DNA from: Gemmataceae bacterium
GTDB taxonomy: Bacteria > Planctomycetota > Planctomycetia > Gemmatales > Gemmataceae
Direction of reading: 5' to 3'
Assembly: GCA_019747655.1 (NCBI GenBank)
Contig: JAIEQO010000290.1
Coordinates: 1 to 47,620, forward strand
Length of the DNA stretch: 47,620 nt
Below, in pieces: positions 3,749-22,531 of the stretch; positions within the stretch are counted from its first letter, which is position 1, and every line of letters begins with the position of its first letter. The translations under genes were made by a program, and so were the position numbers. The notes beneath the pieces are model-generated. The model worked only from the letters and a program-made list of their open reading frames with translations. It was not told the origin of the DNA and did not search any database.

Positions 3749-4417
3749 TCAACCCCGCTCGTGCCCCCCGTCACCGCCCCGGGATTTCAGCCGCTCGGTG
3801 TGCGTCTGGGGGTCCCGGAGTTTCCGCACCCGGTCCCGGGACGACGGGTGACTGTGACTCGCCGGGTTCCGGCTTCGTTCAAACACGGACGCCAGGGATT
3901 CCGGGTCGCCGGTGACCGCTACCGCCAGTGCGTCCGCCGCGTACTCCCGCTTGTGATGGGCGGCCCGCAGGTCGGGGACGAGCATCGCGGGGATCCGGTC
4001 CATGTCACCGTTGGCGATGTGAGCGAGTTCGTGTCCGGCGATCCCCTTGAGTTGGCCCGGCGTGTACTCGAAGAATGCTTCCTCCTTCACCAACAGTAAG
4101 TCTTCGGTCAGTACGGACGCGATACTTTGGGTGAGCGACGAATACCCGGCCAGCACTTTCACATTCGGAGGCCGGATTCCCAGTTCCGCCGACAAGGACT
4201 GCACGTCGGCGAGGAACCGGTCGTATCCTGGGAGTTGCACTGACCATTCGGGGGATCGGAAGTCGGCCCGGTAGTCGTGGAGAAGTTTGTTGGCAGCGAC
4301 AGCGCGAGCCGCACGGCCGCCCGCCCAGAACTCCACCGCTTTCACCCGTGCCACCCAGCCGACTTCGTTTAGGATGTTACCGACCCGGGTTCTCGCTTTT
4401 TCGTGCCACTTCGCCAT
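3749..4417 (-). CDS. M48/HtpX-like zinc metallopeptidase, apparently soluble
   Basis: GHELAHIANGD (HExxH), REYAADALA, SHPSSRDRV; no clear TM segments; start uncertain (4417 or 4432). Confidence 0.85.
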   Translation of the reverse strand: MAKWHEKARTRVGNILNEVGWVARVKAVEFWAGGRAARAVAANKLLHDYRADFRSPEWSVQLPGYDRFLADVQSLSAELGIRPPNVKVLAGYSSLTQSIASVLTEDLLLVKEEAFFEYTPGQLKGIAGHELAHIANGDMDRIPAMLVPDLRAAHHKREYAADALAVAVTGDPESLASVFERSRNPASHSHPSSRDRVRKLRDPQTHTERLKSRGGDGGHERG

Positions 4418-4517
4418 TCGCGATAGTAACACGAGAGAGCCATCGTTGTCACCCGTCCCGTGCGGCAGCCCGCGTGTCGTTACTCAGCCCCGGCCCGTCG
4501 ATTGGCCACGCGGTTCC

Positions 4518-7788: not shown

Positions 7789-8152
7789 GTGAGTTGCGGC
7801 AGAACATGCGGATGAAACCACCCGACAGCAAAGTCAATCACCGATGCACGGGAGGAGGGCCGTGCCGAGCGGTTCATGATCAGTGCGAATGCATGGGCAA
7901 TCTTCACAGCAGCAAAAGGCAGATCGACCGCCGGTCGGCAGTCGGCAGCACGAAGAGCCAACTGACGACACCGGATCAGCGGGCACAGCAACCCAAATGT
8001 CCCGAAGGCCGGTGAAGGGGCTGATCCAGAAAGTCCAACACGAGCAACGAGAAATACCGCACGTTGTGCTGGCGTGTTGGCCGCGTGTCGGTGACAACGC
8101 GATTGCAAGAAGCCCTGCAAACCCGCGCTGGCTGTGATGGAGCAGAGAGGCG

Positions 8153-8168
8153 TTAAGGAACCGTTAAC
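8153..8168 (+). promoter_or_regulatory. TTAA-N7-TTAAC box upstream of the relaxase
   Basis: TTAAGGAACCGTTAAC; TAAAAT 5 nt before the ATG (possibly leaderless). Confidence 0.55.
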
Positions 8169-8194: not shown

Positions 8195-10870
8195 ATGATT
8201 CGTGTTACTCAACAGAACAGTGCCGACGGTGCCAAGCGTTACTACGCTGCGGCCGATTACTACTTGGGCGACCAGGAACTGATCGGCCAATGGGGCGGCA
8301 ACGGAGCTGCCCGCCTCGGTCTTGAAGGCACGGTCGGCAAGCAGGCCTTCGAGCAACTCTGCGACAACATCAACCCCCAGACCGGACAGCCCTTGACGGT
8401 TCGCACACGCGGCGAACGCACGGTCGGGTACGACTTCACCTTCTCAGTACCCAAGTCGGTGTCGCTGCTCTACGGCCTCACTGAAGATAAGAAGATGCTC
8501 GATGCCTTCCGCAGCGCGGTCGAGGAGACCATGCGCGAGGTCGAGTCCGAGATGAAGACCCGGGTCCGCAGGCGTGGCCAGGATACCGACCGTGTGACGG
8601 GCAACATAGTTTGGGCCGAGTTCATCCACACCACCTCGCGGCCGGTCGGCGGGGTGCCCGATCCGCAGCTTCACGCCCACGTCTTCGCCTTCAACAGCAC
8701 CTGGGACAAAAACGAGGAACGTTGGAAGGCGGGTCAGTTTAGAGAACTCAAGCGGGACGCGCCGTACTTCCAGGCGGCCTTCCGGGTGCGGCTGGCGAAC
8801 CGCCTGCAAGAAATGGGCTATGGGGTGGTGCGTAAGCGCGACGACTTCGAGATCGCGGGCGTGCCGACGGATGTGCTCAAGCGATTCTCCCGCCGAACGG
8901 AACTGATCGAGCAACTCGCACAGGAACGCGGCATCACCGATCCCGACCGCAAGGCCGAACTCGGTGCCGAGACGCGCGAACACAAGGGCAAGAACCTGTC
9001 GCTTGCCGAACTGCGCCGGGAATGGCTCATGCGGCTTACTACCGAAGAACGCACCTGGCTCGGCAAGGTCCACAAGCGCGAGACGAAACCCACCCGGCCG
9101 GAGCGGGGTGAACGCACGGCCGTGGAGCATGCCATCGACCACAGCTATGTGCGCGACGCCGTGGTGCCGGAGCGGAAACTAATGACTGAAGCACTGAAGC
9201 GCGGACTCGGTGCCGTGACGGTAGACAAGGTGGCTGATGAACTTGCCCGAAGGCCCCTGATCCGAAGTCAGGTGGAGGGGCGCGACATGGCGACGACACG
9301 GGACATGCTCGCCCTGGAATCGAAACTGGTAGCGTTCGCGCGCGACGGGCGTGGCCGCTGCCGCCCCCTCAGCGATCCCAAACGACCATTCACACGCGAC
9401 TGGTTCAATGACGGCCAGAAGGCCGCCGTGCGGCACGTCCTGGGATCAAAGGATCGAGTGATGATGATTCGCGGCGTGGCCGGAACTGGCAAGACGACGC
9501 TGGAACAGGAGATCGGAGAGGCACTGGCCGAGGTCGGGAAACCCGTCGTGGCGATAGCCCAGTCGGTTAAGGCCAGCCGCGAAGTGCTGCGTGAGGAAGC
9601 TGGGTTTGCCTCCGCCGACACGGTCGCCCGCTTCCTCAAAGACAAGGAGATGCAGGAGTCGGCGAGGGGCGGGGTGATCCTGGTGGACGAGGCGAGCCAG
9701 CTCGGTACGCGGGATATGCACTCGGTCTTTACGGTGGCCGAAGCGGTGAATGCCCGCGTCGTGCTGGTCGGGGACCGTCGTCAGCATAAGAGCGTCACGG
9801 CCGGTGAGCCGCTGAGGCTCCTGGAAGAACGCTCCGGCCTGCCTGTGGCCGAGGTCACAGAGATTCTGCGGCAGCAGGGCGACTACAAGAAGGCGGCCGG
9901 CTACTTGAGCGAAGGCCGCATCGGGGATGCGTTTGCCGAACTCGACAAGCTGAAGTGGGTGAGGGAGGTCAGCGACACGGAACGCTATCGGGAGCTTGCC
10001 GACGCCTACCTTGCGGCCGGCAAGGAGCGAACCAAAGACGGGAAACAGAAGACCGCCCTGGTGGTCTCACCGACGCACGCCGAGGCCGCACGCGTCACCG
10101 ACGCTGTGCGCAAGGCACTCAAGAAGGACGGCACACTCAAAGATGAACGCACAGTGGCGACCTATGTAGCCGCCCACCTGACCGATGCCCAGAAGGCGGA
10201 TGCCACCGAGTACGAGCCGGGCGACCTGATCCAATTCCATCAGAACGCGCGTGGGCACACGAAAGGAACGCGGCTGGTCGTCGGTAATGCAGTCGCCCCA
10301 CCGACAGACCTGGCGGCGCGGTTCGAGGTCTACCGCTCCCGGCCGCTCGCCCTGGCCGCGGGCGACCGCATCCGCGTTACCTCCGGCGGCAAGACCAAGG
10401 ACGGCAAGCACCGCCTGAGCAACGGCTCGCTGTTCACGGTCGAGGGGTTCACGGCCAAAGGCGACATCCGGGTGAACGACGGGTGGGTGATCGATAAGGA
10501 CTTCGGCCACCTGACGCACGGGTACGTCACCACCAGCCACGCCAGCCAGGGAGCTACCGTCCACAAGGTGTTCGTCGCGGCCTCCGCCGAGTCCCTGAAG
10601 GCCACCGACCAGCGGACGGCGTATGTGGCCGTCACCCGCGGTAAGGAGCAGGCGGTCATCTTTACCGACGACCGCGAGGAACTGCTGAAAGCGGCCACGC
10701 GGTCGGATACGTCGCTTTCGGCGACGGAACTGGTGGATTCCAAGCACGCGCAACCGACTGCACTGCCCAAACGCCGCCGGGCGTTCCAGCACGGCACGGC
10801 CGGACCAGATTTCGCGCCGATAGCGGCACGGCAAATCGAGCCGACTAGAGGGGACGACCATGCTCGATAA
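8195..10870 (+). CDS. mobF: MobF (TrwC/TraI-like) relaxase-helicase
   Basis: N-terminal YYAAADYY, GYDFTFSVPKSVS, HTTSRP, PDPQLHAH (HUH), Walker A GVAGTGKTT, VDEAS, HGYVTTSHASQGATV, YVAVTRG. Confidence 0.97.
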   Translation: MIRVTQQNSADGAKRYYAAADYYLGDQELIGQWGGNGAARLGLEGTVGKQAFEQLCDNINPQTGQPLTVRTRGERTVGYDFTFSVPKSVSLLYGLTEDKKMLDAFRSAVEETMREVESEMKTRVRRRGQDTDRVTGNIVWAEFIHTTSRPVGGVPDPQLHAHVFAFNSTWDKNEERWKAGQFRELKRDAPYFQAAFRVRLANRLQEMGYGVVRKRDDFEIAGVPTDVLKRFSRRTELIEQLAQERGITDPDRKAELGAETREHKGKNLSLAELRREWLMRLTTEERTWLGKVHKRETKPTRPERGERTAVEHAIDHSYVRDAVVPERKLMTEALKRGLGAVTVDKVADELARRPLIRSQVEGRDMATTRDMLALESKLVAFARDGRGRCRPLSDPKRPFTRDWFNDGQKAAVRHVLGSKDRVMMIRGVAGTGKTTLEQEIGEALAEVGKPVVAIAQSVKASREVLREEAGFASADTVARFLKDKEMQESARGGVILVDEASQLGTRDMHSVFTVAEAVNARVVLVGDRRQHKSVTAGEPLRLLEERSGLPVAEVTEILRQQGDYKKAAGYLSEGRIGDAFAELDKLKWVREVSDTERYRELADAYLAAGKERTKDGKQKTALVVSPTHAEAARVTDAVRKALKKDGTLKDERTVATYVAAHLTDAQKADATEYEPGDLIQFHQNARGHTKGTRLVVGNAVAPPTDLAARFEVYRSRPLALAAGDRIRVTSGGKTKDGKHRLSNGSLFTVEGFTAKGDIRVNDGWVIDKDFGHLTHGYVTTSHASQGATVHKVFVAASAESLKATDQRTAYVAVTRGKEQAVIFTDDREELLKAATRSDTSLSATELVDSKHAQPTALPKRRRAFQHGTAGPDFAPIAARQIEPTRGDDHAR

Positions 10871-11414: not shown

Positions 11415-11447
11415 TTAACCCGGAATTTACCCTTCGTGCGGTAGGAT
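11415..11447 (+). promoter_or_regulatory. TTAA-N7-TTTAC box and -10 (TAGGAT) upstream of the exosortase-like gene
   Basis: TTAACCCGGAATTTAC-N11-TAGGAT. Confidence 0.5.
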
Positions 11448-11478: not shown

Positions 11479-12519
11479 ATGCCCAATAGCACTCGCTCGT
11501 CGTCATCAACTGCACCCTTCGTGATCCGGCTTCTCGGCCGCCTGTCGCCGCTCGACTGCTTCCGGGAGGAGCGATTCTGGCGATACGCACTCCTGCCGCT
11601 GGCCGGCTCGATGTTGCCGGTGTTGGTGCTTGCGATTCACAAAGGGAATCCGGTGTCGGAGAGCCTCGTGGGACTGGTCAGCGCCGTGGCACGCGCTCTG
11701 CCCACAGTACTGCTGATTCGCGTACTCGACCGTGACCCCGCAGGCCCCTTCCGCCTCCGGGTTTCGTGGACGGCACTGGCGGTGTGTTTCGTCGGGTTCA
11801 GCGGACCTATTGTGATAGGAGTACGGCCGGGCGCATGGCATGGGGCAATGCAGTCGGCAGTTTACCCGCTGCTCCTGACCGGCGTCCTGGCCGGCGTCGT
11901 GTCGGCCGTCCCGCCCGGGGAACTCATCCGCCGGGCTGCCCGCCACCGGATGCCCACGGGCCTTGCCGTCATCGGCCTTCTGCCCTACGTCCATCGTCTT
12001 TTGCTCGCACCGGAGTGGCGGATTCTCCACCCAATCTCGATCACCCTGACCCGGTGGCTGCTGGATTTGGCTGGGATCGGCACCACTGAAACCGAGTACT
12101 TCCACAAACGATTCGGGTTCGCCGTGCTGATACAGGCGCAGCACTGGGATGTGCTGATCTCGAAGGAGTGTAGCGGCTTCGCACGGGTCCTGATCTTCGT
12201 TGCGCTGTTCGCGTCGATGCTGCTCCAGAACCCGGCCCGCCTCCAGTCGTCAGTCGCGGTGGCGACCAGCTTTATCGGTGGCTTGGTAGCCGTCCTGAGC
12301 GTCGAATCCGTTCGGTGGGCAGCCTTGGTCGCCTTCGCCGAGCACACACTGCACGACGTCGGGCACACTCGCGCCGCGTATCGATCGATAGAGACGTACC
12401 ATCGTGCTGGCGGTCAATGGTCGGTATCCTTGTCGCTGGTTCTATTCGCGGCTTACTTCTACGTCGTGAGCCGCTGGCTGGACCGGCGTGCGGGACTCAT
12501 CCGGCAAACCCCAGGGTGA
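11479..12519 (+). CDS. Exosortase/archaeosortase family membrane transpeptidase
   Basis: Multiple TM segments; ISKECSG (Cys), ESVRWAAL (Arg), ETYH (His) in exosortase order. Confidence 0.7.
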   Translation: MPNSTRSSSSTAPFVIRLLGRLSPLDCFREERFWRYALLPLAGSMLPVLVLAIHKGNPVSESLVGLVSAVARALPTVLLIRVLDRDPAGPFRLRVSWTALAVCFVGFSGPIVIGVRPGAWHGAMQSAVYPLLLTGVLAGVVSAVPPGELIRRAARHRMPTGLAVIGLLPYVHRLLLAPEWRILHPISITLTRWLLDLAGIGTTETEYFHKRFGFAVLIQAQHWDVLISKECSGFARVLIFVALFASMLLQNPARLQSSVAVATSFIGGLVAVLSVESVRWAALVAFAEHTLHDVGHTRAAYRSIETYHRAGGQWSVSLSLVLFAAYFYVVSRWLDRRAGLIRQTPG

Positions 12520-12543
12520 TCCCGGAACGGCGAAGGCAGGGAA

Positions 12544-13518
12544 TCAGGGCAGAAGATCGCCATCTCCGGAAAACGCGACCGTGCAGGCAGGGAAGGCGTA
12601 GCTGCCCGACAAGCTGCCGCTGCTGCATGTGCGGCTCTCACTCTGGCAAACATCAGGCTCGGTTACCGCGTCGCTGAGATAGGCGGTCACGCTCGCCCCG
12701 TCGGCAACAGGGATGCCGTTGAACATGCAGGATGCTGGGGTCGGCGCGGGGGTCGATGTGGCAGTAGGAGCCGGCGTGGCGGTTGGCGTCGGTGCTGCTA
12801 ATACGTCACACGTCTCGTAATTGAACGATCCTGACATGGTGCCATCGTTGCAGGTGCGAGTCTCGCTCTCACAGGTATCCGGGCTGGTGACTTCGTCGAA
12901 CTGGTACGCGGTGACCGAATCGCCATGATTAATACTCGTCCCATTGAAAGAGCACTGGCCTCCACCAGGAGTGGGGGAAGGAGTAGAGGTTGGTGTGGGA
13001 GTAGGTGTCGCAGTCGGAGCAGGCGTCGGGGTAGATCCCGTAGTGCAACTGGCAGACGGAAAACTGCCTGGCGACAGGACGCCGCTGGTACAGGTCCGGG
13101 TTTCTGTCGGTTCCGCCGCGCAATTGGGGGACACGGGAACGGGATACGCCGTGACATTGCCGCCGTTCACAATGGTTACGCCGTCGAATACGCACATGCC
13201 GGCGAATGGATTAACCCGTAGAGCAGAGCAGGACATATTGACGCAATACCGATTCTCCGGCAATTTCTGGTATATGAAACCTGCCTGGCTACAGGACGCC
13301 CCGTTGTCACTGTCGAGACAGCAGCGGCCGCCGGGGTTGCTCAGGCAGGGTGTTACCCCGCCGGCGCAATACGGCGGAAACGCCGCGGAGCCGCTGTAAC
13401 ACGTCGCGGTTGAAGCCGCTCGCGCGTCGGCCGTTAAACCCGCCCACGCGAGAATCGCCGACACGGCCAAAAGAACTGATCGGCCACGAAAAAATTTTAT
13501 CGCAGAATATAATGACAT
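12544..13518 (-). CDS. Secreted Cys-rich protein with three about 50-aa repeats and Pro/Thr linkers
   Basis: Signal peptide ending ARA; 3x CxF[ND]GxxIxxGxxVTAY...E[ST]RTCxxGxxSxxSxxxxxC; PTPT linkers. Confidence 0.8.
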   Translation of the reverse strand: MSLYSAIKFFRGRSVLLAVSAILAWAGLTADARAASTATCYSGSAAFPPYCAGGVTPCLSNPGGRCCLDSDNGASCSQAGFIYQKLPENRYCVNMSCSALRVNPFAGMCVFDGVTIVNGGNVTAYPVPVSPNCAAEPTETRTCTSGVLSPGSFPSASCTTGSTPTPAPTATPTPTPTSTPSPTPGGGQCSFNGTSINHGDSVTAYQFDEVTSPDTCESETRTCNDGTMSGSFNYETCDVLAAPTPTATPAPTATSTPAPTPASCMFNGIPVADGASVTAYLSDAVTEPDVCQSESRTCSSGSLSGSYAFPACTVAFSGDGDLLP

Positions 13519-13778
13519 GAGGTGCCCGTGATGAGAGTGTACGCCACGGCAAATTATGGCACGCCCGGGGGCTTGCCGCAATCAATTTGACAGGCGGTCC
13601 CGGTCGGGACGAGATACGAACATTGCCATTTCATCCTGATCGGTCAAGCGGTTGCCGCACGCCTACCCGTATACAACTATATCGTGGCGGCCGGGGGCCG
13701 GAGTGTTTTCACGATTGATTCGCGGGCACGACTACGATATACTTCCGCCCCAGATGAATCGTGGCGGGAGCAACAAAC

Positions 13779-14267
13779 ATGTGGGCAGTGAGGGGAATGG
13801 CTGTGCTGAGCGTAATGGTGATCACGGGTGCAAAGGCGATGGACGTGCCGCAAGCCGAAGCGATCGCGAAAGCGGCCGTGGCGGATCAGGGATACCCCCC
13901 GGAGATGGCCGACCGCATGATCGCCGACACGGCAACCGTCCTTGTTTCGTTTCCGGCCTGGGCACCGCTCTACCCGGGTGCGGTGGTTTCGGCCGGCGGC
14001 AACGCCTGGGAATCGGACGAGGCGTCGCGCACGGCCAGGGGGAGCCTGAGCTTTGCCACGAAGGATTCGCGCAGCACCGTCGCGGATTTCTACGTCGAGG
14101 CGTTTTCGGCGAAGGGTGAAGTCACACAATATCGCACCGAGGAACCCTGGACGATTGAGGTGATAACATCGGATCAAAGCGAAGTGACGACCCTTAACCT
14201 TGAACAGGGAGAGGCACACAAAACCAATGCTACCCTCAATTACACTAAGGCACCAGTGCGGCAATAA
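13779..14267 (+). CDS. Hypothetical exported protein
   Basis: GGGAG RBS, signal-like N-terminus ending AKA, PAWAPLYPGA motif. Confidence 0.7.
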   Translation: MWAVRGMAVLSVMVITGAKAMDVPQAEAIAKAAVADQGYPPEMADRMIADTATVLVSFPAWAPLYPGAVVSAGGNAWESDEASRTARGSLSFATKDSRSTVADFYVEAFSAKGEVTQYRTEEPWTIEVITSDQSEVTTLNLEQGEAHKTNATLNYTKAPVRQ

Positions 14268-14289
14268 ACCATCAAGAATAGGAGAATAC

Positions 14290-15249
14290 ATGATGACACG
14301 CTTGTTATCCCTGCTAGCGATTGCAGTACTTGCTACTACACCCTTGCCTGCACAGGCTGACCAAGCGCAGATGGGCGGCGGGCTACCTTTCGAGCTGTAC
14401 AAATACGACAATGCCACGCTGTACTCCCAGAAATCCATTGTGTACGGAAAGCGTAAACTGGAGAAGAATGAGCTGGCGGTTGGGAAAATCACGGCATTGG
14501 TGTACGTGGTCAAGGGCGACCACACACCTTTGGAAATCGGCGAGAATTACAAACAGTCTTTGATAAGCCAGGGTTTTGCAATCATTGCTGAGAGCGAGGG
14601 CAAGTCGATCGGCCAGATGTGTTGGAATCTCGATCTGGAAGATATTTGCTATCGAAGCGGTGTGTATGGCGAAAACTATAAGCTGCAACTGAAGAAAACA
14701 GACGCGGCCGGCGATGCGTTCGTCGATATTGTGATCGGCCAGGCCAAAAACAAAATCAAAGGCAAGCCGGACGGGGCGGTGAAGTTGCCAGAGATGATTC
14801 TGGAGCCCGGCGAGAACACCGTGATACTGCTGATCATCACTCCTAAGAAGCTTGAGCACAAAATGGTAAAAGAGGACATGTCGTTCATCCTAGGCCAACT
14901 CAAGGAAAAGGGGAAAGTCGATCTCTACGGTATCTTCTTCGACACCGATATGGCGCAGATCAAGCCACAAAGTGCGGATGTGATTACCGAAATCGCCAAG
15001 GCGCTCCAGCAAGATCCGTCACTCCGCCTGCAGGTGGCGGGACACACCGACAATGTTGGATCGCCCGACCACAACATGGCATTATCGCAAGCACGTGCGG
15101 CATCGGTCGTGTCAGCAATAGTGGCGAAGGGTGTCGCGCCGGATCGGCTTTCCGCCAAAGGCTATGGCTCCAGCCAGTCGGTGACAGCAAACGATACCGA
15201 AGAGGGCCGTGCGAAGAACCGCCGGGTCGAGCTTTCGCGTATCTCTTGA
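14290..15249 (+). CDS. OmpA-like peptidoglycan-binding domain protein
   Basis: Signal peptide; YGIFFDTD, VAGHTDNVGS, NMALSQARA, GRAKNRRVEL; AGGAG RBS. Confidence 0.92.
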   Translation: MMTRLLSLLAIAVLATTPLPAQADQAQMGGGLPFELYKYDNATLYSQKSIVYGKRKLEKNELAVGKITALVYVVKGDHTPLEIGENYKQSLISQGFAIIAESEGKSIGQMCWNLDLEDICYRSGVYGENYKLQLKKTDAAGDAFVDIVIGQAKNKIKGKPDGAVKLPEMILEPGENTVILLIITPKKLEHKMVKEDMSFILGQLKEKGKVDLYGIFFDTDMAQIKPQSADVITEIAKALQQDPSLRLQVAGHTDNVGSPDHNMALSQARAASVVSAIVAKGVAPDRLSAKGYGSSQSVTANDTEEGRAKNRRVELSRIS

Positions 15250-15369: not shown

Positions 15370-15807
15370 ATGGGGTACGCCCGCGAGGGCGACGTGGTGG
15401 TCGTCCACAGCATGGACCGCCTGGCCCGCAACGTCCACGACCTGCTGACCCTGGTCAAGGGTATGACCGCGAAGGGCATCGCCGTCGAGTTCCGCAAGGA
15501 AAACCTGTCGTTCACGGGCAACGACAGTTCCATCTCCCACCTCATGCTGACCGTGCTCGGGGCCGTCGCCCAGTTCGAGCGGGATCTAATCCGCGAGCGG
15601 CAGCGGGAGGGGATCGAGGCCGCCAAGAAGCGGGGCGTCTACCGGGGCAGGCGGAAGGCATTGACGCCCGAGCAGGCGGCCGAACTCGCCCGCCGGGCCG
15701 CGGCCGGCGAAAGCAAGTCCGAGCTCGCCCGCGAGGCCGGGGTCAGCCGGGAGACGCTTTACCAGCATCTGCGGCAGGTGCGTCACACCACTCCGGGCGG
15801 GGGTTGA
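15370..15807 (+). pseudogene. 5'-truncated serine resolvase/invertase
   Basis: REGDVVVVHSMDRLARN...ERQREGIEAAK and C-terminal HTH present; the YxRVS catalytic N-terminus is not in the upstream frame. Confidence 0.8.
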
Positions 15808-16130
15808 TGGACAACCTACTTTACCTCTGCCTGGAGGCGCACAACCCCGATCGAAATCACCACCGCCGGTACGAGGTCCGGCTCTCCCGCGATCTGTTCG
15901 GCCACTGGGTGGTCACGATCGGCTACGGTCGGGCGGGGTTGGGCGTGCAACAACTCGTCTACTCGGACCCAGACCCTTTGGTCACGCGGGACATCATCCG
16001 CTACTACCTCGACCGCCGGGCGTCTGCCCCGCGGCGGCTCGGATGCGAGTACCGCCTTCGTGATCTTTCCGCGGGGCCGGGCATCGACCTCGGCTTCTGG
16101 CTCCCGCCGGAGCTGATGTCCGACGACTGA
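15807..16130 (+). CDS. WGR-domain protein
   Basis: RNHHRRYEVRLSRDLFGHWVVTIGYGRAG. Confidence 0.8.
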   Translation: MDNLLYLCLEAHNPDRNHHRRYEVRLSRDLFGHWVVTIGYGRAGLGVQQLVYSDPDPLVTRDIIRYYLDRRASAPRRLGCEYRLRDLSAGPGIDLGFWLPPELMSDD

Positions 16131-16386: not shown

Positions 16387-18207
16387 TCATGTGGACGAAC
16401 CGCCGCCGGGCGTTCGTCCCGATTCCTTGATCTGGCGGCGCGTCAACTCCCGCGCTAGAAACCCCTCCGGGTCCGACGGGTTGTGGGTGGCGGCCTCCCG
16501 GTAGATGCCCGGCACGTTCCGAAACTCGGCGAAACGGTCGTCGGCAACGAGACGGGCGATCGTGTCCTGCACCCGTAGCAAGTATCCCTCCGGGTTCGAC
16601 GGGTAGCGGGTGGCGGCCTCCCGGTAGATGCCCGGCACGTTCCGAAACTCGGCGAAACGGTCGTCGGCCCCCAGCCGGAGGCAGGTGTCACGCACCTGGG
16701 TGAGAAACCCCTCCGGGTCCGAGAGGTAACTCACGGCCGCCTGACGGAATACAAACGGGTACTCGCGGAACTCGGCGAACCGCTCGTCGGCCTGGAGCCG
16801 GATGATCGCATCCTGCACCCGTTGCAGATAATTCTCCGGGTCGGTGGGGCGGCTGATGGCAGCGGACCGATAAATGCCTGGGGTGTCGCGGAACTCGGCG
16901 AAGCGGTCGTCGGTTGCGAGCCGAGCAGTGGCGGCCGCGACTTGCGTCAGGAACCCCTCCGGGTCGAGAGGGGACCGCTCGGCCGCCGCGCGGAAGATGT
17001 AAGGGTACTCACGGAACTCGGCGAATCGCTCGTCCGCGGCGAGGCGTGACACCGCTTGTTGCGTGCGGAGAAGAAAACCCTCCGGGTCGTTCGACCAGTA
17101 GACTGCGGCTTGGCGGAACACGCCCGGCGCGTCCCGGAACTCGGCGAACCGCTCATCAGCGGACAAGCGGGCGATCGCATCGGCGACCCGAGCGAGAAAG
17201 CCCTCGGGGTCCGACGGGTTGCCCATAGCCGCCTTGCGGAACACACCTGGGGTGTCGAGGAACGCCGCGAACCGGTCGTCGGCCGCGAGCCGAGCCGCGG
17301 TCGACGCGATTTGCGTCAGGAACCGCTCCGGGTCGGCTGGGCTGTGGAGGCTGGCCTCGATGAACAGCGAGGGGGCGTCGCGGAACTCGGCGAATCGGTC
17401 GTCGCCCGCGAGCCGCGCGGCCGACCGCTGAACGCCTAGCAGAAACCCCTCCGGGTCCGCCGGGTGAGAGAGGGCGACCTGCCGGTAAACGCCGGGGCTG
17501 CGCCGGAACTCGGCGAACCGCTCGTCGGCCTCCAGCCGGGTAACCGCCTGCTGGGTGCGGACGAGGAATGCTTCGGGGTCCACCGGGTAGCCGCGGGCGG
17601 CGAAGCGAAACACGCCTGGGGTGTCGCGGAACTCGGCGAACCGCTCGTCGGCCTCCAACCGCCAGATCGCATTTTGCGCGCGGACCAAGGCGGCCGCCGG
17701 GTCCGCCGGGTACTGCTTTGCGGCCATACGGATGAACCCAGGGGTGTCGGCCAACTCGGGGAACTGCCCGGCCAGATCGTCGAGTGCGCCGTTGAACAGC
17801 GTGGCCGCGGTTAGCGCTTCGGCGTCGCCCGCAAGAGCTTCAACGTTGACGGCCAGTTCCAGGGCGAGCAGCCGGTAGACGGTCGGCCGCAGGTCGTCCG
17901 GGACCGGTACGCGCCTCCGCCGGCACATCTCCTCGAATCGCTCGAACAAATGGCCCTGAACGTCATGGGGTACAAGAGCGGCATCTGGAGAGCCGAGCTC
18001 GGCCAGCAGTCGGCTGCCGTCCCAGGCGTCGAAACACGCTTCCAGGGTCTCGTCGGGCAGGTGGGGGCGGCCGGTGAACTTCTTGCCGCTCTCTCGCTGG
18101 ACCCGTCGGACTTCATTCATGAAATCAGCGGCCCGCTGGAGTCGCTCCGGGCGGATCGAATCGGCGATGGCGGGTGTTGAAGGTGTGGACTCGGACGGAT
18201 CGGACAC
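16387..18207 (-). CDS. Tandem-repeat protein with about 11 x 41-aa helical repeats
   Basis: Repeat D[ED]RFAEFRxxPGxFRxAAxxxPxDPEGFLxxxxxxxxRLxA; start re-called at GTG 18207 because the track start at 18249 lies inside the predicted promoter. Confidence 0.85.
   Translation of the reverse strand: MSDPSESTPSTPAIADSIRPERLQRAADFMNEVRRVQRESGKKFTGRPHLPDETLEACFDAWDGSRLLAELGSPDAALVPHDVQGHLFERFEEMCRRRRVPVPDDLRPTVYRLLALELAVNVEALAGDAEALTAATLFNGALDDLAGQFPELADTPGFIRMAAKQYPADPAAALVRAQNAIWRLEADERFAEFRDTPGVFRFAARGYPVDPEAFLVRTQQAVTRLEADERFAEFRRSPGVYRQVALSHPADPEGFLLGVQRSAARLAGDDRFAEFRDAPSLFIEASLHSPADPERFLTQIASTAARLAADDRFAAFLDTPGVFRKAAMGNPSDPEGFLARVADAIARLSADERFAEFRDAPGVFRQAAVYWSNDPEGFLLRTQQAVSRLAADERFAEFREYPYIFRAAAERSPLDPEGFLTQVAAATARLATDDRFAEFRDTPGIYRSAAISRPTDPENYLQRVQDAIIRLQADERFAEFREYPFVFRQAAVSYLSDPEGFLTQVRDTCLRLGADDRFAEFRNVPGIYREAATRYPSNPEGYLLRVQDTIARLVADDRFAEFRNVPGIYREAATHNPSDPEGFLARELTRRQIKESGRTPGGGSST
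16460..17770 (-). repeat. 123-bp coding tandem repeat array
   Basis: gaactcggcgaa-like motif recurs every 123 bp; 16485-16545 is identical to 16608-16668. Confidence 0.95.
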
Positions 18208-18239
18208 GGCGGCTCGGGAATCGTTGCTCTCTGCTAACG

Positions 18240-18271
18240 ATTCTCGCACCCGCGGGTTAACAACTCGTAAA
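18240..18271 (-). promoter_or_regulatory. TTTA-N7-TTAAC box and -10 (TGcGAGAAT) upstream of the repeat-protein gene
   Basis: Minus strand TTTACGAGTTGTTAAC-N10-GAGAAT. Confidence 0.5.
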
Positions 18272-18349: not shown

Positions 18350-19210
18350 TTACAACCCGAGCATGCGCGTGAACCAGGTGAGGGCGTGGAACGTCTCCGG
18401 GCGGGTCGATTCCGCCTCCCTTCTGCAATCCTCAATCGTCGGAAGGCGAAACCACCTGGCGGCCCGCGTTCGGCCGACAACCAAAGCCAGTGCCCTCGCC
18501 AGCAAAATCCGCAGGTCGAGCCATAGGCCGGCGTGCCGACAGTACCAGAGGGCCACGGCGAGCATGGACGGGTGGTGGGGCGGCGCGCCGGGGGTAAGAA
18601 GGCTGTGCAATCCCGTCAGTCCGGGCGGGTTATCGGCCCGTTCCGCCAGACCGCGGCCCTTTGCGACCGCGAAGTCCGCGAAGAAGTCGGGCGGCGGGCC
18701 GACCAAGCTCCAGTCGCCTCGCAGGACACCGAGCAGCAGCGGAGCGCGCGAGAGTCCGGTGCCAAGCAGGAATTGACCGATCCGTGTGGGCGCTCGTACT
18801 TGTCGATTTCTTGAAGAAGAATTTGTTAAACTGTCCAGCCGGTCTTCCCCGGCAACGCTTTCGGGCCGGCGAGGCACTCGCAGTTGCCGACCACGAAGAG
18901 TTCCGCCCCACCGCCCGGCGAGATCGACTCGCTCGAAGGCGGGCCTTCGCAAGATCAGGCGCACGAGCAAGGCGGCGGCGATCACGAACGGCGTCAGCAA
19001 GACGACGGCGAGCGATGAAAGTGCAAGGTCCAGGCACCATTTCGCTCGGAGATACCGCGACAGTCGCCGCAAGGCCGCTCCGCGAATGCGGGCGTGGCGC
19101 GGGGAGTGCGCGCACACCAAGTCCCGCGCCTCGTCGGCTTCTTCGGGGGTGGCGAGCCCCAACGCGGCCCGGTTGAGTCGCGTCAGGGGATTATCGGCGT
19201 CGTCCGTCAC
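18350..19210 (-). CDS. Degenerate sugar transferase (PglC/WcaJ-type phosphoglycosyltransferase) homologue with extra N-terminal segment
   Basis: KWCLDLALS, TRIGQFL, VLRGDWSLVGPPP, PGLTGL, LWLDLRIL; catalytic LDELPQ reads LSRAPL. Confidence 0.75.
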   Translation of the reverse strand: MTDDADNPLTRLNRAALGLATPEEADEARDLVCAHSPRHARIRGAALRRLSRYLRAKWCLDLALSSLAVVLLTPFVIAAALLVRLILRRPAFERVDLAGRWGGTLRGRQLRVPRRPESVAGEDRLDSLTNSSSRNRQVRAPTRIGQFLLGTGLSRAPLLLGVLRGDWSLVGPPPDFFADFAVAKGRGLAERADNPPGLTGLHSLLTPGAPPHHPSMLAVALWYCRHAGLWLDLRILLARALALVVGRTRAARWFRLPTIEDCRREAESTRPETFHALTWFTRMLGL

Positions 19211-19967
19211 GGACTGCCTCCTGCCGTGGGAACTCCAACTTTCGCTTGGAGGAGATGGCGTATTTTTCGAGCCCGAGGCCGTCTTCGGCCAATAGCCGAA
19301 GGCACACCACCCACGCCTGCCCCCAGTCCAAAATGACTTGGGCGACGTCCTCGACGGATTTTACGCTGCGTACTGGGGCAGGAATCGTTTCAGCCACTGC
19401 CGCGAGCGTCTCTTTCAGAAATCGCTCGGTTCGCTCCGGCCTGTGCCCAACCAAGTGCTCCATCGGCCCGTCGCTGGTGAAGTAGTGGAACAGGCAGAGC
19501 AGCGCCTCCGGCGTGAGCGGAGCTTCCGCGTCTTGATCAAACGGGTCGCCTTTCAGGAGGGACCGGGCAAAGGCGGTCGCGTGGCAGAAGCCGCCGAGGT
19601 TGAGAACCGCTTCGGCGGCAAGAGGCTGCCCCAACTGGCTCGGGACCGCAAACAGGACGTAGAACCGCTGGAACTCCTTGAACGGCGGGTCTTGCTCGCC
19701 GCGTATCCACCGACCGGGCGTCGCGTGGTTCGTGTTCAGCCGGCGCGCCGCCTCGGTCTTGCCCGTCTCGGTGGCCTTCAGACACTGTGCCATCCACTCC
19801 AGGGAACGCGCGGTCTGGAACCGCCACATCCCGTGCTCGAACTGGTCTACCAGTTCCTGCCGTAACTGCTCCCGCGTCATCGCCCGCAATGATTCGATCA
19901 GGCGGACCACGAGGGGGTCGTATTCCGGTACGTACTCGGGCGTGATCGTTTCCGCTTCGATGCCCAC
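19191..19967 (-). CDS. XRE/Cro-like HTH protein with C-terminal helical domain
   Basis: GKTEAARRLNTNHATPGRWIRGEQDP; GGAGG RBS before TTG/GTG at 19970/19967. Confidence 0.65.
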   Translation of the reverse strand: MGIEAETITPEYVPEYDPLVVRLIESLRAMTREQLRQELVDQFEHGMWRFQTARSLEWMAQCLKATETGKTEAARRLNTNHATPGRWIRGEQDPPFKEFQRFYVLFAVPSQLGQPLAAEAVLNLGGFCHATAFARSLLKGDPFDQDAEAPLTPEALLCLFHYFTSDGPMEHLVGHRPERTERFLKETLAAVAETIPAPVRSVKSVEDVAQVILDWGQAWVVCLRLLAEDGLGLEKYAISSKRKLEFPRQEAVRDGRRR

Positions 19968-20018
19968 CAATGTCCCTCCACCACCACTTGTCGCTTCTCT
20001 TGAGCCCACCCGCTGTCG

Positions 20019-20082
20019 CCGTGCGCGCCGCGCACGGGGGCCAAAAACCAGGGGGTAGAAATGAACAACCGGTTGGTCACAC
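20019..20082 (+). promoter_or_regulatory. Palindromic operator plus conserved promoter block, copy 1
   Basis: CCGTGCGCG-C-CGCGCACGG then AAAAACCAGGGGGTAGAA...CAACCGGTTGGTCACA. Confidence 0.7.
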
Positions 20083-20118
20083 GCCAACCGCACGACCCCG
20101 AATCGAAGGAGGTGCGAG

Positions 20119-20922
20119 ATGACACAGGTGCTCAAGAAACCGCTGCAATGGTTCAAGCCCGATCCGGGCCAGGCTCGCAAGCATTTTATCGAAGCCGAGC
20201 TTCGCGATCTCGGCGAATCGCTGCGGGTCCGCCAACTCCAGCCGGTGCTGGCAAAGCCGGACGGGACGATCATCGCCGGGGAGCGGCGCTACCGCGCCGC
20301 CGCACTGGCCGGCATTGCCACCCTCGACGTGATCGTTACCGACGAGCCGCTAACCGAGACGCAGGTCCGGATCGTCCAACTCACCGAGAACGTTCACCGG
20401 GTCGACTTGACCGAAGGGGAGAAGTACCGGGCCTGCGAGGAACTGCTGCGGCTCAACCCTGGCTGGACGAACAAGGATTTGGCGGCCCACCTGAAGCTCT
20501 CGGAGCCGACGGTGACCAAGTATCTGGCTCCGGGCCGCGCGATCCCCGAAGTTCGTCAGGCGCTGGATGCCGGGCAGGTCGGCATCACCACCGTCTACGA
20601 GATCGCCAAGGCTCCGCCGGAATCGCAGGCCCTTCTGCTCCAGATGTCGCTGGCGGGCGAATCCCGTGACGGGCTTGCTCGGCATGTCCGCTCCGCCAAG
20701 CAAAAGGCTGCTCCGCAAACGCGGGTGAAACGCATCGTCTGCCCGCTTCCGTCCGGCATCAGCGTCACGGTGTCTGGTGCTGAACTTTCGCTCGATGAAC
20801 TGATCGACGCCCTCGGCGAAGCCCAAAAGCAGGCCAAGAAAGCCCGCGAGGACGGTCTCGACGCCAAGACCTTTACGGCCGTCCTCAAGGACAAGGCGCG
20901 CAAAGGGGCCAGTCATGGATAA
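20119..20922 (+). CDS. ParB/RepB/Spo0J family protein
   Basis: QLQPVL, IIAGERRYRAA, QLTENVHRVDL, HTH; AAGGAGG RBS. Confidence 0.92.
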   Translation: MTQVLKKPLQWFKPDPGQARKHFIEAELRDLGESLRVRQLQPVLAKPDGTIIAGERRYRAAALAGIATLDVIVTDEPLTETQVRIVQLTENVHRVDLTEGEKYRACEELLRLNPGWTNKDLAAHLKLSEPTVTKYLAPGRAIPEVRQALDAGQVGITTVYEIAKAPPESQALLLQMSLAGESRDGLARHVRSAKQKAAPQTRVKRIVCPLPSGISVTVSGAELSLDELIDALGEAQKQAKKAREDGLDAKTFTAVLKDKARKGASHG

Positions 20923-22531
20923 CGCACCGACACTTCGCCAGTTGCTTCAAACGGGCCTGGGGCTGGGATTGGTCTCCTTCTCGGCCTGGGTGGCCGAACT
21001 GGGCCGTCCGTCCGATCGCTGGATGGCGCTGGCCGGCGGCATAGGCGGCGCGGCCTGCATGGTCCATGCCGTGTTCGGCAAGCGGACGCGCACGATCCGG
21101 CCGAGTGCCGATGGTCTCGAACGGGTGCTCCTGCACTGGGACGAAGAGAACGTCTTTACCGTGCGTGACCTGCTGAATTCTGCCGCGATCTTCGGCCGGA
21201 CCGGCAGTGGGAAAACGTCATCGAGCGGTCGGGCCATCGCCGAGGCGGTGGTTCGACTGCCGGGTAGCGGCGGCCTCATCATCGCGGCGAAGCCGGGCGA
21301 GGATCGCGCGTTTTGGGAAGGCGTATTCGCGGCGGCAGGCCGCAGCGATGACCTGCTTGTGTTCTCGCCCGATCATTCACTTCGCTGCAATCTGCTCGAT
21401 TACGAGATGCGCCACGGCGGCGGGCATACCCGCAACATCACCAAGACGCTTACCACCATCGCAGAGACGCTTCGCTCTAGCGATACCGACAACCGTGAAA
21501 GCTCCGACTTCTGGCAGAAAGAACAAGAACGGATGTTGTTCAACGCGGTCGAGGTGGTCAAACTCGCCACCGGTGGTGTGTCCGCTCCCGACCTGCACAA
21601 GTTTATCGGCACGGCGGCATTGTCGCCCGTCCAGTTCACCTCGACCGATTGGCTGGCGGGGTTTCACAACCAGTGCATGAAGCGGGCGTGGGAAACCCCC
21701 AAGTCCACCGTCACGCAGCACGACTTTGACCTCGCCAAGGAGTACTGGCTCGGTGAATTCCCTGTCATGGCGGATAAAACCCGCTCGTCGATCCTTACTG
21801 GCGTAATGGGCATCCTTCACACTTTCAACACGGGCATCGTCCGCGAGTTGGTCAGCACCACGACGAACGTTACGCCGGACGACTTATTTCGCGGCAAGTT
21901 CATTTTCGTTGACATGCCGGTGTCGGACCTTGGGGATGTTGGAGCGTTCGTCTCCGGAGGCCTGAAGTATCTCTGCCAGCGTGCCATCCTTCGCCGCAAA
22001 GCCAGCGAGTCGGCGAACGTCGCCGTGATCTGGGCCGACGAAGCGCAAGGCGTGGTCACGTCGTTCGACGCTCCGTTCTTGGCTCAGTGCCGCAGTCACC
22101 GTGGCTGTGCCGTTTACATCAGTCAATCGCTTCCCGGCTACTACGCCGCCCTCGGCGGCGAAGCGGGCAAGCGATCTATTGATGCCCTGCTGACCAACTT
22201 CAGCACGAAAGTCTTCCACGCCCTGGGCGACCTGGAAACGGCGGAGTGGGCAAGCGGACTGGTTGGCAGGTCTTTGCAGACCTTCACCGGCGGCTCGATG
22301 GGACAGCAAGACGGGGTGTACGACACGTTGATAGGCCGCTCCCAATACCAGGCCAACTTCTCGCAATCCTTTGAATCCACACTGCAAGCCAACGCCTTCC
22401 TGCACGGACTAAAAACCGGCGGGCAGGTGGCTGGCTTTGTTTGCGATGCCTTCGTGATCCGCACGGGTGAGCCCTTCGTCTCCGGAGCAAATTGGCTGAA
22501 GCGGAGCTTCTCGCAGCGGCCCGGCCGCTGA
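20915..22531 (+). CDS. Type IV coupling protein (VirD4/TraD-like ATPase)
   Basis: Two N-terminal hydrophobic segments, Walker A GRTGSGKT, Walker B VIWADEAQ, CRSH...SQSL, DLETAEWASGLVG. Confidence 0.88.
   Translation: MDNAPTLRQLLQTGLGLGLVSFSAWVAELGRPSDRWMALAGGIGGAACMVHAVFGKRTRTIRPSADGLERVLLHWDEENVFTVRDLLNSAAIFGRTGSGKTSSSGRAIAEAVVRLPGSGGLIIAAKPGEDRAFWEGVFAAAGRSDDLLVFSPDHSLRCNLLDYEMRHGGGHTRNITKTLTTIAETLRSSDTDNRESSDFWQKEQERMLFNAVEVVKLATGGVSAPDLHKFIGTAALSPVQFTSTDWLAGFHNQCMKRAWETPKSTVTQHDFDLAKEYWLGEFPVMADKTRSSILTGVMGILHTFNTGIVRELVSTTTNVTPDDLFRGKFIFVDMPVSDLGDVGAFVSGGLKYLCQRAILRRKASESANVAVIWADEAQGVVTSFDAPFLAQCRSHRGCAVYISQSLPGYYAALGGEAGKRSIDALLTNFSTKVFHALGDLETAEWASGLVGRSLQTFTGGSMGQQDGVYDTLIGRSQYQANFSQSFESTLQANAFLHGLKTGGQVAGFVCDAFVIRTGEPFVSGANWLKRSFSQRPGR

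Follow-up and report, generated by a model that had tools for sequence, protein, structure and literature searches.

Organisation of the repeat gene

The window, by which we mean the whole 47,620-nucleotide stretch of DNA that was analysed, contains a gene for a repeat protein (16387..18207, minus strand). The gene belongs to an unnamed family in which variation is focused on a few positions of the repeat unit, it is linked to a mobile element with a MOBF relaxase, and it has a promoter box in common with the relaxase gene. The longest form of the open reading frame extends over 18249-16387 (620 aa). The likely product is a protein of 606 aa that begins at the GTG at 18207, the start given in a preliminary description of this DNA. 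This start is preferable to 18249 because related genes begin at the matching residue, where five homologues read V[ST]D[PR], and because the 42 nt that precede it contain the conserved promoter.

The encoded protein opens with a conserved N-terminal domain of about 130 aa (17773..18150, this and the following features being on the minus strand), which is found throughout the family, is predicted to be all-helical and contains the motif FERFEEMCRR. The domain is followed by a degenerate first unit of 41 aa (17650..17772; residues 160-200), nine full 41-aa units (16543..17649; residues 201-569) with variable positions 12, 16, 20 and 21, and a partial last unit (16444..16542) that starts at residue 570. 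The units keep an exact phase of 41 aa and 123 nt, and Tandem Repeats Finder returned a period of 123. The unit count of the preliminary description (one degenerate, nine full and one partial) is thus confirmed, as are its lists of residues at positions 16 and 19-21, and the 61-nt identical run that it placed in the last two units is exact, with copies at 16608-16668 and 16485-16545. The protein ends in a short tail (16387..16443, including the stop codon). This tail had been described as basic and flexible; it is modelled with low confidence and is only mildly basic (four Arg/Lys, two Asp/Glu), and the protein as a whole is acidic, with a pI of 5.05, a net charge of -20 and an average charge of -0.2 at the start of helix 3.

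DNA of the gene is present in 20 of the 24 sequencing runs listed, from 12 studies that are mostly biofilm, drinking-water and groundwater metagenomes and may include the one from which the DNA came; no RNA dataset carrying the gene was found among the runs listed. Pieces from the four runs that were compared cover 24-30 of 30 bins of the gene. In two of these runs the gene sequence does not deviate at any nucleotide; the other two carry natural alleles, which retain the reading frame. Close alleles differ by 20 silent and 13 replacement codons in the subset listed. Among the replacements are two-base swaps that turn F into H at unit position 16 and S into N at position 20, and a Y>N change at position 21 is seen in L003.

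The mobile element and neighbouring genes

The repeat gene lies in a lower-GC stretch that also encodes a MOBF relaxase, a VirD4-like coupling protein, ParA, ParB, a resolvase and a methylase. The MOBF/TrwC relaxase-helicase gene (8195..10870, plus strand) is followed by a serine resolvase, present as an N-terminally short open reading frame, and a WGR-domain gene (15370..16130, plus strand) that converge on the repeat gene, with a ParB-like gene and the gene for the VirD4-like coupling protein further along (20119..22531, plus strand). The open reading frames scanned in the window included none that could be recognised as a VirB-type mating-pore gene. The earlier proposal that the gene sits on a mobile element is supported by the relaxase, by the coupling protein and by related elements, one of which (G132) matches positions 1750-27548 of the window in pieces at 74-96% DNA identity.

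Within these elements, the location of the repeat gene differs. In G132, L011, L012 and L013 it faces away from the relaxase gene at a distance of about 300 bp, in the window and in L003 it adjoins the WGR gene, and in L015, a locus of the Gemmataceae genome G197, it is found downstream of the relaxase operon, implying that the gene moves within the element. The relaxase is present in 83 of the 252 genomes of the host family, and the repeat gene is intact in four, so the repeat gene is optional cargo. Further members of the family have chromosomal locations (L001, with trp genes, recG and ldtR as neighbours; L017; L019) or lie near phage, transposase or toxin-antitoxin genes (L014 and L018).

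Positions 7790-8139, upstream of the relaxase gene and likely on the oriT side, have no match in the G132 element, and their flanks are 85-90% identical; it is at this slot that the repeat gene is found in relatives. Positions 11479-15249 hold lower-GC cargo encoding an exosortase-like membrane protein, a Cys/Thr/Pro-rich secreted protein and an OmpA-domain protein, and exosortase-like genes resembling that of the window are found in L013 and, in pieces, in G132. On the minus strand at 18350-20273, upstream of the repeat gene and divergent from parB, are two genes, one diverged and resembling bacterial sugar transferases, the other unannotated and possibly encoding a helix-turn-helix; relatives have an XRE regulator at this place. 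A neighbour at L007 was considered as a homologue of the 169-aa gene, and this was unsupported.

Short, charged tails ending in Arg are found on the M48-like peptidase encoded at 3749-4432, on the relaxases of the window and of L011-L015, and on several repeat proteins. These tails are possible type IV export signals. Among repeat proteins, 28 of 134 end in Arg, against 14% of 2425 host open reading frames. The idea that the repeat protein is a transferred effector draws weak support from its C-terminus, as charge and terminal Arg are just slightly above the host background.

A promoter box in common with the relaxase gene

Upstream of the repeat gene, a TTTA-N7-TTAA box (18257..18271, minus strand) lies 11 nt before a -10-like hexamer (18245-18240), and an inverted repeat, AATCGTT-N10-AACGATT (18219..18242), forms a putative operator that is kept, with up to 2 mismatches, in L011, L012, L013 and L016. 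The relaxase promoter has a perfect TTAA-N7-TTAA box (8153..8167, plus strand) in the same geometry. When one mismatch is allowed, a TTAA-N7-TTAA box is found 59-70 nt upstream of the start both in the window and in 11 of 17 homologous loci, where 0.56 would be expected, a count that covers loci with upstream DNA other than L003, L014 and L017, uses starts chosen by the analyst and includes about half kin. The box is at a fixed place in 27 of 30 related relaxase promoters (L035-L064; L080-L109), and 26 of the 30 loci fetched with a stricter pattern were relaxase promoters. Just five TT[AT]A-N7-TTAA boxes occur in the host genome, and those of the repeat gene and the relaxase gene are two of them; a one-mismatch box is also seen at 11415. 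From this arrangement it is likely that the repeat gene is co-expressed with the relaxase.

The sequence and geometry of the box fit a CtrA-activated promoter, and are also pho-box-like. The full CtrA site has the same sequence and, in promoters that CtrA activates, is located around -35 to -39 (PMC4287350). A search of 251 genomes of the host family yielded no CtrA; the best CtrA-like identity was 38% in G000 and 41-43% in the 13 best of the 251 genomes, and the reference protein scored 423 bits on the CtrA model. The L001 locus, which looks alphaproteobacterial, has four boxes. In the host, judging from gene names assigned by reading the sequence, a pstS-like gene has TTCA-N7-TTCA upstream and a PhoB-like regulator is encoded after a pstB-like gene, and Streptomyces PhoP is described as binding 11-nt repeats (PMC2275107). 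The reader of the box is likely an OmpR/PhoB-type regulator. The repeat protein itself was considered for this role and rejected, since 27 of 30 relaxase promoters have the box, the repeat gene is present in just one of their fetched flanks, and it is intact in only four of the 252 genomes.

An unnamed family of repeat proteins

A full-library search recovered 270 family representatives (clusters at 50% identity) at E up to 0.001, and 171 at 1e-10. The best 150 of the 270, together with earlier matches, make up the set of 153 proteins and 20 loci that was analysed. Members have the N-terminal domain in common and carry 1-12 detected units each, with a median of 3 among 100 apparently complete proteins, as counted with a strict profile that misses some degenerate units. 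The source records call members hypothetical or give them automatic names that are unrelated. Among the hosts named there are planctomycetes, an alphaproteobacterium, Acidobacteria, a Phycisphaerales bacterium and Ca. Levybacteria. The gene is rare, with matches in 6 of 252 genomes of the host family (the four intact copies include that of the host's own genome), in none of 400 other genomes of the phylum, and in 2 of 401 genomes of the class of the Rhodospirillaceae MAG, one being the seed and one marginal. The isoelectric points of the family are split, with 51% of members above 8 and 22% below 6. Tandem doubles of the domain and array are found in P0016, P0021, P0025, P0033 and P0115, and several loci are broken or truncated (L005, L018 and L016). 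A branch with shorter units of about 37 residues is represented by P0079, P0136 and P0146, and one of its members is from Ca. Levybacteria. The protein at L002:204-1859 is fused to ankyrin repeats and P0108 has a long unannotated C-terminal extension. The record for L013 (G021/G656) is titled Alcaligenaceae, and by genome it groups with the planctomycete family of the window.

No curated family fits the protein in Pfam, NCBIfam or PDB sequence searches, and the family profile matched only designed helical proteins (E 2e-4). No armadillo, HEAT, ankyrin, PUF or PPR model matched P0001 at E up to 1. There was a weak match to TPR_14 (E 0.04; 15 bits, below the curated cut-off of 23.5). DUF7638 (PF24644) reached 28.6 bits when summed across the repeats (cut-off 27), with no single stretch passing, and its matches at E up to 1 were limited to 10 of the 105 members, which looks like repeat noise. 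There was no usable match in the ESM Atlas for the whole protein or the N-terminal domain, no match in BFVD at E up to 0.001, and no relative in viral contigs or in phage and plasmid records. No relatives of 1286-3670 aa were found, which is weak evidence, and a description of a 41-residue repeat family of this kind was not found in the open-licence literature.

Variation is focused on a few positions of the unit

Among 530 units, the within-protein difference is highest at positions 20 (0.87) and 16 (0.84). The same two positions stand out in homogeneous arrays (14 of the 79 arrays with 4 or more units, the units being at least 70% identical and the first unit dropped), where position 16 differs in 76% and position 20 in 68% of unit pairs and the median position differs in 14%. 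Positions 35, 21, 12 and 31 come next (0.45-0.39); since 35 (0.45), 31 (0.39) and 23 (0.37) vary too, positions 12 and 21 are no outliers by variation alone. In P0039 and P0020, units are about 90% identical to one another and vary mainly at 12, 15, 16 and 19-21. Replacement differences were found at position 16 in 84% and at position 20 in 75% of pairs in three homogeneous arrays with DNA. The preliminary description had placed variation at 9-12 and 19-21. For the former, homogeneous arrays agree at 12 (0.39) and 10 (0.34) and disagree at 9 (0.05) and 11 (0.08), and for the latter the residues had been given correctly, but position 19 is 76% aliphatic. Two elements with relaxases that are 83% identical carry arrays that differ at most variable positions. 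We take the scaffold to be held constant by duplication and conversion.

The residues used at these positions are drawn from small alphabets: G/S/W make up 77% at position 12, R/H/Y/Q 63% at 16, H/N/G/S/R 71% at 20 and Y/N/H 79% at 21, and acidic residues are rare at these positions, with Asp and Glu nearly absent at 12, 20 and 21. Position 15 is Arg or Lys in about two thirds of units and there is a conserved Arg/Lys at position 30 as well. Over 133 units, the mean charge per unit is +1.0 for helix 2, +1.2 for the start of helix 3 and -1.8 for helix 1. Coupling among the variable positions is weak (z of 4.0 for 20-21 and 3.6 for 16-20, against 7-8 for scaffold pairs). There are 344 different triplets at 16/20/21 in 608 units and 116 different pairs at 20-21, where HN, NN and NH are common and the top four pairs cover 23% of 609 units. 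Judged from its sequences, this is a diversified surface and not a four-word cipher. The triplet diversity, the weak coupling, the low coverage of the top pairs and the median of three units make it doubtful that the arrays read one ligand unit per repeat with a TALE-like code, as had been suggested.

Predicted structure

An AlphaFold2 model built from a 105-sequence alignment reached a pLDDT of 93.5 and a pTM of 0.77, with all five models above 92, and superseded a single-sequence model (pLDDT 63). Each unit is predicted to form three helices, at positions 2-7, 11-20 and 25-41. Positions 12, 16, 19 and 20 would fall at i, i+4, i+7 and i+8 of helix 2, and 21 just after it. The placement of the variable residues on one helix face, proposed from the sequence, is supported by the model, where that face lies beside the conserved Arg/Lys at 15. 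The model of three-helix units, which no curated family describes, also supports the reading of the protein as an alpha-solenoid with an N-terminal helical domain, the latter being present family-wide and predicted to be all-helical with no recognised fold.

The confident model has no good match among solved folds. Foldseek returned nothing at E up to 0.001 (best E 0.019, TM about 0.2 or less, rmsd about 30 A). With both models, TALE and BurrH chains ranked first among PDB chains and mTERF1 lower (E 1.0-2.0; structural alignment Z 2.1-2.4). In a second comparison, TALE and BurrH chains and designed left-handed toroids gave Z of 3.5-4.9 (TALE up to 4.9, rmsd 7-30), and the best Z of VIA among 48,161 chains was 5.2, for TBC domains over the N-terminal domain, values so low that, as the tool warns, they may reflect merely a common helical arrangement. 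We read the TALE-like matches as a shared local arrangement in the model, not homology. No armadillo, PPR, PUF or HEAT chains were among the fold matches listed for a model of over 400 residues.

Comparison with known repeat proteins

TAL effectors and their relatives (AvrBs3/PthA, RipTAL, Bat/BurrH and STAR) resemble the repeat protein in several respects: their helical units are arranged in tandem, the scaffold of the unit is fixed and its hypervariable residues end a short helix, the first unit, after an N-terminal helical region, is degenerate, and the last is partial. TALE units are described as left-handed two-helix bundles (PMC11514114), with a twist and rise that match B-DNA per base pair (10.1101/2024.09.05.611252). 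In contrast to the fetched TALE-like units of 33-35 residues, those of the present family have 41 residues and an extra short helix. They also have four variable positions in place of two, lack a few dominant words and seem to form a different superhelix, and the hosts are mostly environmental bacteria and mobile elements. An alignment by eye that placed positions 20-21 on the RVD was rejected after Pfam, profile and PSSM tests all failed. The Pfam TAL model has no match at the locus at E up to 10. In a comparison with Xanthomonas TALE units, whose profile has little diversity, 30 of 200 shuffles were equal or better, and single units from Xanthomonas, Bat and RipTAL had PSSM z values of 0.0 to 0.6, which did not surpass those of shuffles or of Sel1 and ankyrin units. 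A very long unannotated protein of a Rhodovastum plasmid (L075) has a weak TALE match in tblastn (30% identity, E 8e-9).

Left-handed solenoids are rare, mTERF being among them, and the predicted three helices per unit are a likeness to mTERF and pTERF proteins. STAR, MOON and pTERF were described by Hu et al. 2024 (PMC11417379), where pTERFs, from MAGs and mostly of Bacillota, have 3-11 tandem units, and different arrays bind different DNA motifs. According to that description, on which the comparison is based, pTERFs have annotated mTERF motifs, unlike P0001; the present family also has its own conserved N-terminal domain. mTERF was absent among the 6 families that match P0001 at E up to 1 and among the 25 most frequent of 145 families matched across 105 members. 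Four to six units superpose about unit-for-unit on designed left-handed alpha/alpha toroids (4yxx, 8c3w; Z 3.7-4.4), a six-repeat toroid giving Z 4.4 with rmsd 5.5 over 169 residues and another an rmsd of 2.9 over 109. The toroids differ in being artificial, two-helix, closed rings. This overlap hints at tight curvature in the modelled solenoid.

With PUF, PPR and armadillo proteins the repeat protein has in common, by prediction, variable residues at i, i+4 and i+8 of one helix per unit, and it differs from them in the absence of a Pfam match in P0001. An armadillo unit of about 42 residues is close to the 41 found here. We take helix lengths of 6/10/17 within 41 residues to resemble those of armadillo units, and have counted this in favour of a protein ligand.

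Possible ligands and mode of action

A sequence-specific nucleic-acid binder best fits the homogenised scaffold, the base-reading residue types on one helix face and their conserved basic neighbours. The repeat protein is tentatively regarded here as a putative modular binder of specific double-stranded DNA, the sequence being set by unit positions 12, 16, 20 and 21, a reading to which we give somewhat less than an even chance. According to the model, the protein would fold into a curved three-helix solenoid in which helix 2, ending directly before 21, would present 12, 16 and 20 on one face beside Arg/Lys 15, and the acidic helix 1 would face away. Each unit would likely contact bases through several independent side chains and possibly cover more than one base pair, which the tighter curvature suggested by the toroid overlap would suit, and with several base contacts per unit 3-12 units would suffice. 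Since no catalytic domain was recognised, the protein would presumably act by occupying its site, as a repressor or roadblock. It would likely be switched on together with the transfer genes and be optional for transfer.

The reading of duplex DNA is weakened by fold matches that are below significance, by the lack of a TALE sequence signal and by the acidity of the window member, and also by the ankyrin fusion in L002 and a variable-position alphabet that fits protein surfaces as well, Tyr, His, Asn, Ser, Gly and Trp being typical of these too. A search of low power for a one- or two-base code in the DNA upstream of the repeat and relaxase genes at 10 loci placed the real arrays within or near three shuffled controls over 7 settings; they exceeded all three controls in one of the 7, by 2 units.

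The protein may instead be a solenoid that binds proteins or peptides through a diversified surface, in the manner of armadillo or ankyrin proteins, serving for example in anti-defence or interference, or as a secreted effector. The acidic window member, the aromatic and small-polar alphabet, the near independence of the variable positions, the fusion in L002 and the many short, basic tails that end in Arg all agree with such a role. We consider it rather unlikely, as P0001 gave a weak TPR_14 match at E up to 1 and none to models of armadillo, HEAT, ankyrin or PUF repeats, the Arg/Lys at 15 and 30 and the rarity of Asp/Glu at 12, 20 and 21 suit a polyanion, and the nearest of the weak structural matches are nucleic-acid binders. 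If the polyanion were single-stranded, as RNA or transferred DNA, stacking and edge contacts of the kind made by PUF and PPR proteins might be provided by Arg/His/Tyr at 16 and Trp/Tyr/His at 12, which are stacking-type residues predicted to lie on one helix face; the relaxase, with which the promoter design is common, makes single-stranded DNA, and a modest charge suits recognition led by the bases. There is no PUF or PPR sequence match, however, arrays with a median of three detected units would give little specificity at one base per unit, and the weak coupling is unlike that of a two-position code, so that a single-stranded ligand appears distinctly unlikely.

The possibility that the protein is a very remote TALE relative with two insertions, in which 20-21 would be the RVD and each unit would read one base pair, was also weighed. 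By eye, positions 10-21 and L29/V32/Q33/I36/L39 can be aligned to positions 2-13 and helix b of TALE units, HN, NN and NH are common at 20-21, and TALEs top both Foldseek lists. Against this stand the failed Pfam, shuffle and PSSM tests, the apparent difference in superhelix (rmsd about 30 A), the greater variation at 16 than at 20-21 and the large number of different pairs, and we regard such a relationship as highly improbable. Relaxed drift at the surface of a cargo protein that is structural or decaying would account for the broken and truncated loci and for the rare, patchy occurrence of the gene. It is hard to reconcile with the variation of the same positions, over the same small alphabets, in otherwise homogenised arrays, with alleles whose changes are mostly silent and keep the frame, or with the conserved promoter, and we give it very little credence.

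Implications

Natural repeat scaffolds that recognise nucleic acids through a modular code are, to our knowledge, few, and every one of them has been turned into a tool. It is possible, and somewhat less than evenly probable, that the family represents a novel class of solenoids that bind nucleic acids, are programmable and have no sequence relationship to TALE, PPR, PUF and mTERF proteins, with a multi-residue code on helix 2 (12/16/20/21) that is rewritten by duplication and conversion, and that it is spread or delivered by conjugative elements and switched on with the relaxase. If true, this would add a new programmable binder beside the TALE and PPR proteins. The family is bacterial and compact and offers natural arrays by the hundred, in some of which the units are 90% identical outside the variable sites, so that the existence of a code is directly testable. 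Should the ligand instead be protein, the family would still be an undescribed, diversified binding scaffold without a matching solved fold. If the nucleic-acid reading is true, mobile elements carry retargetable binders.
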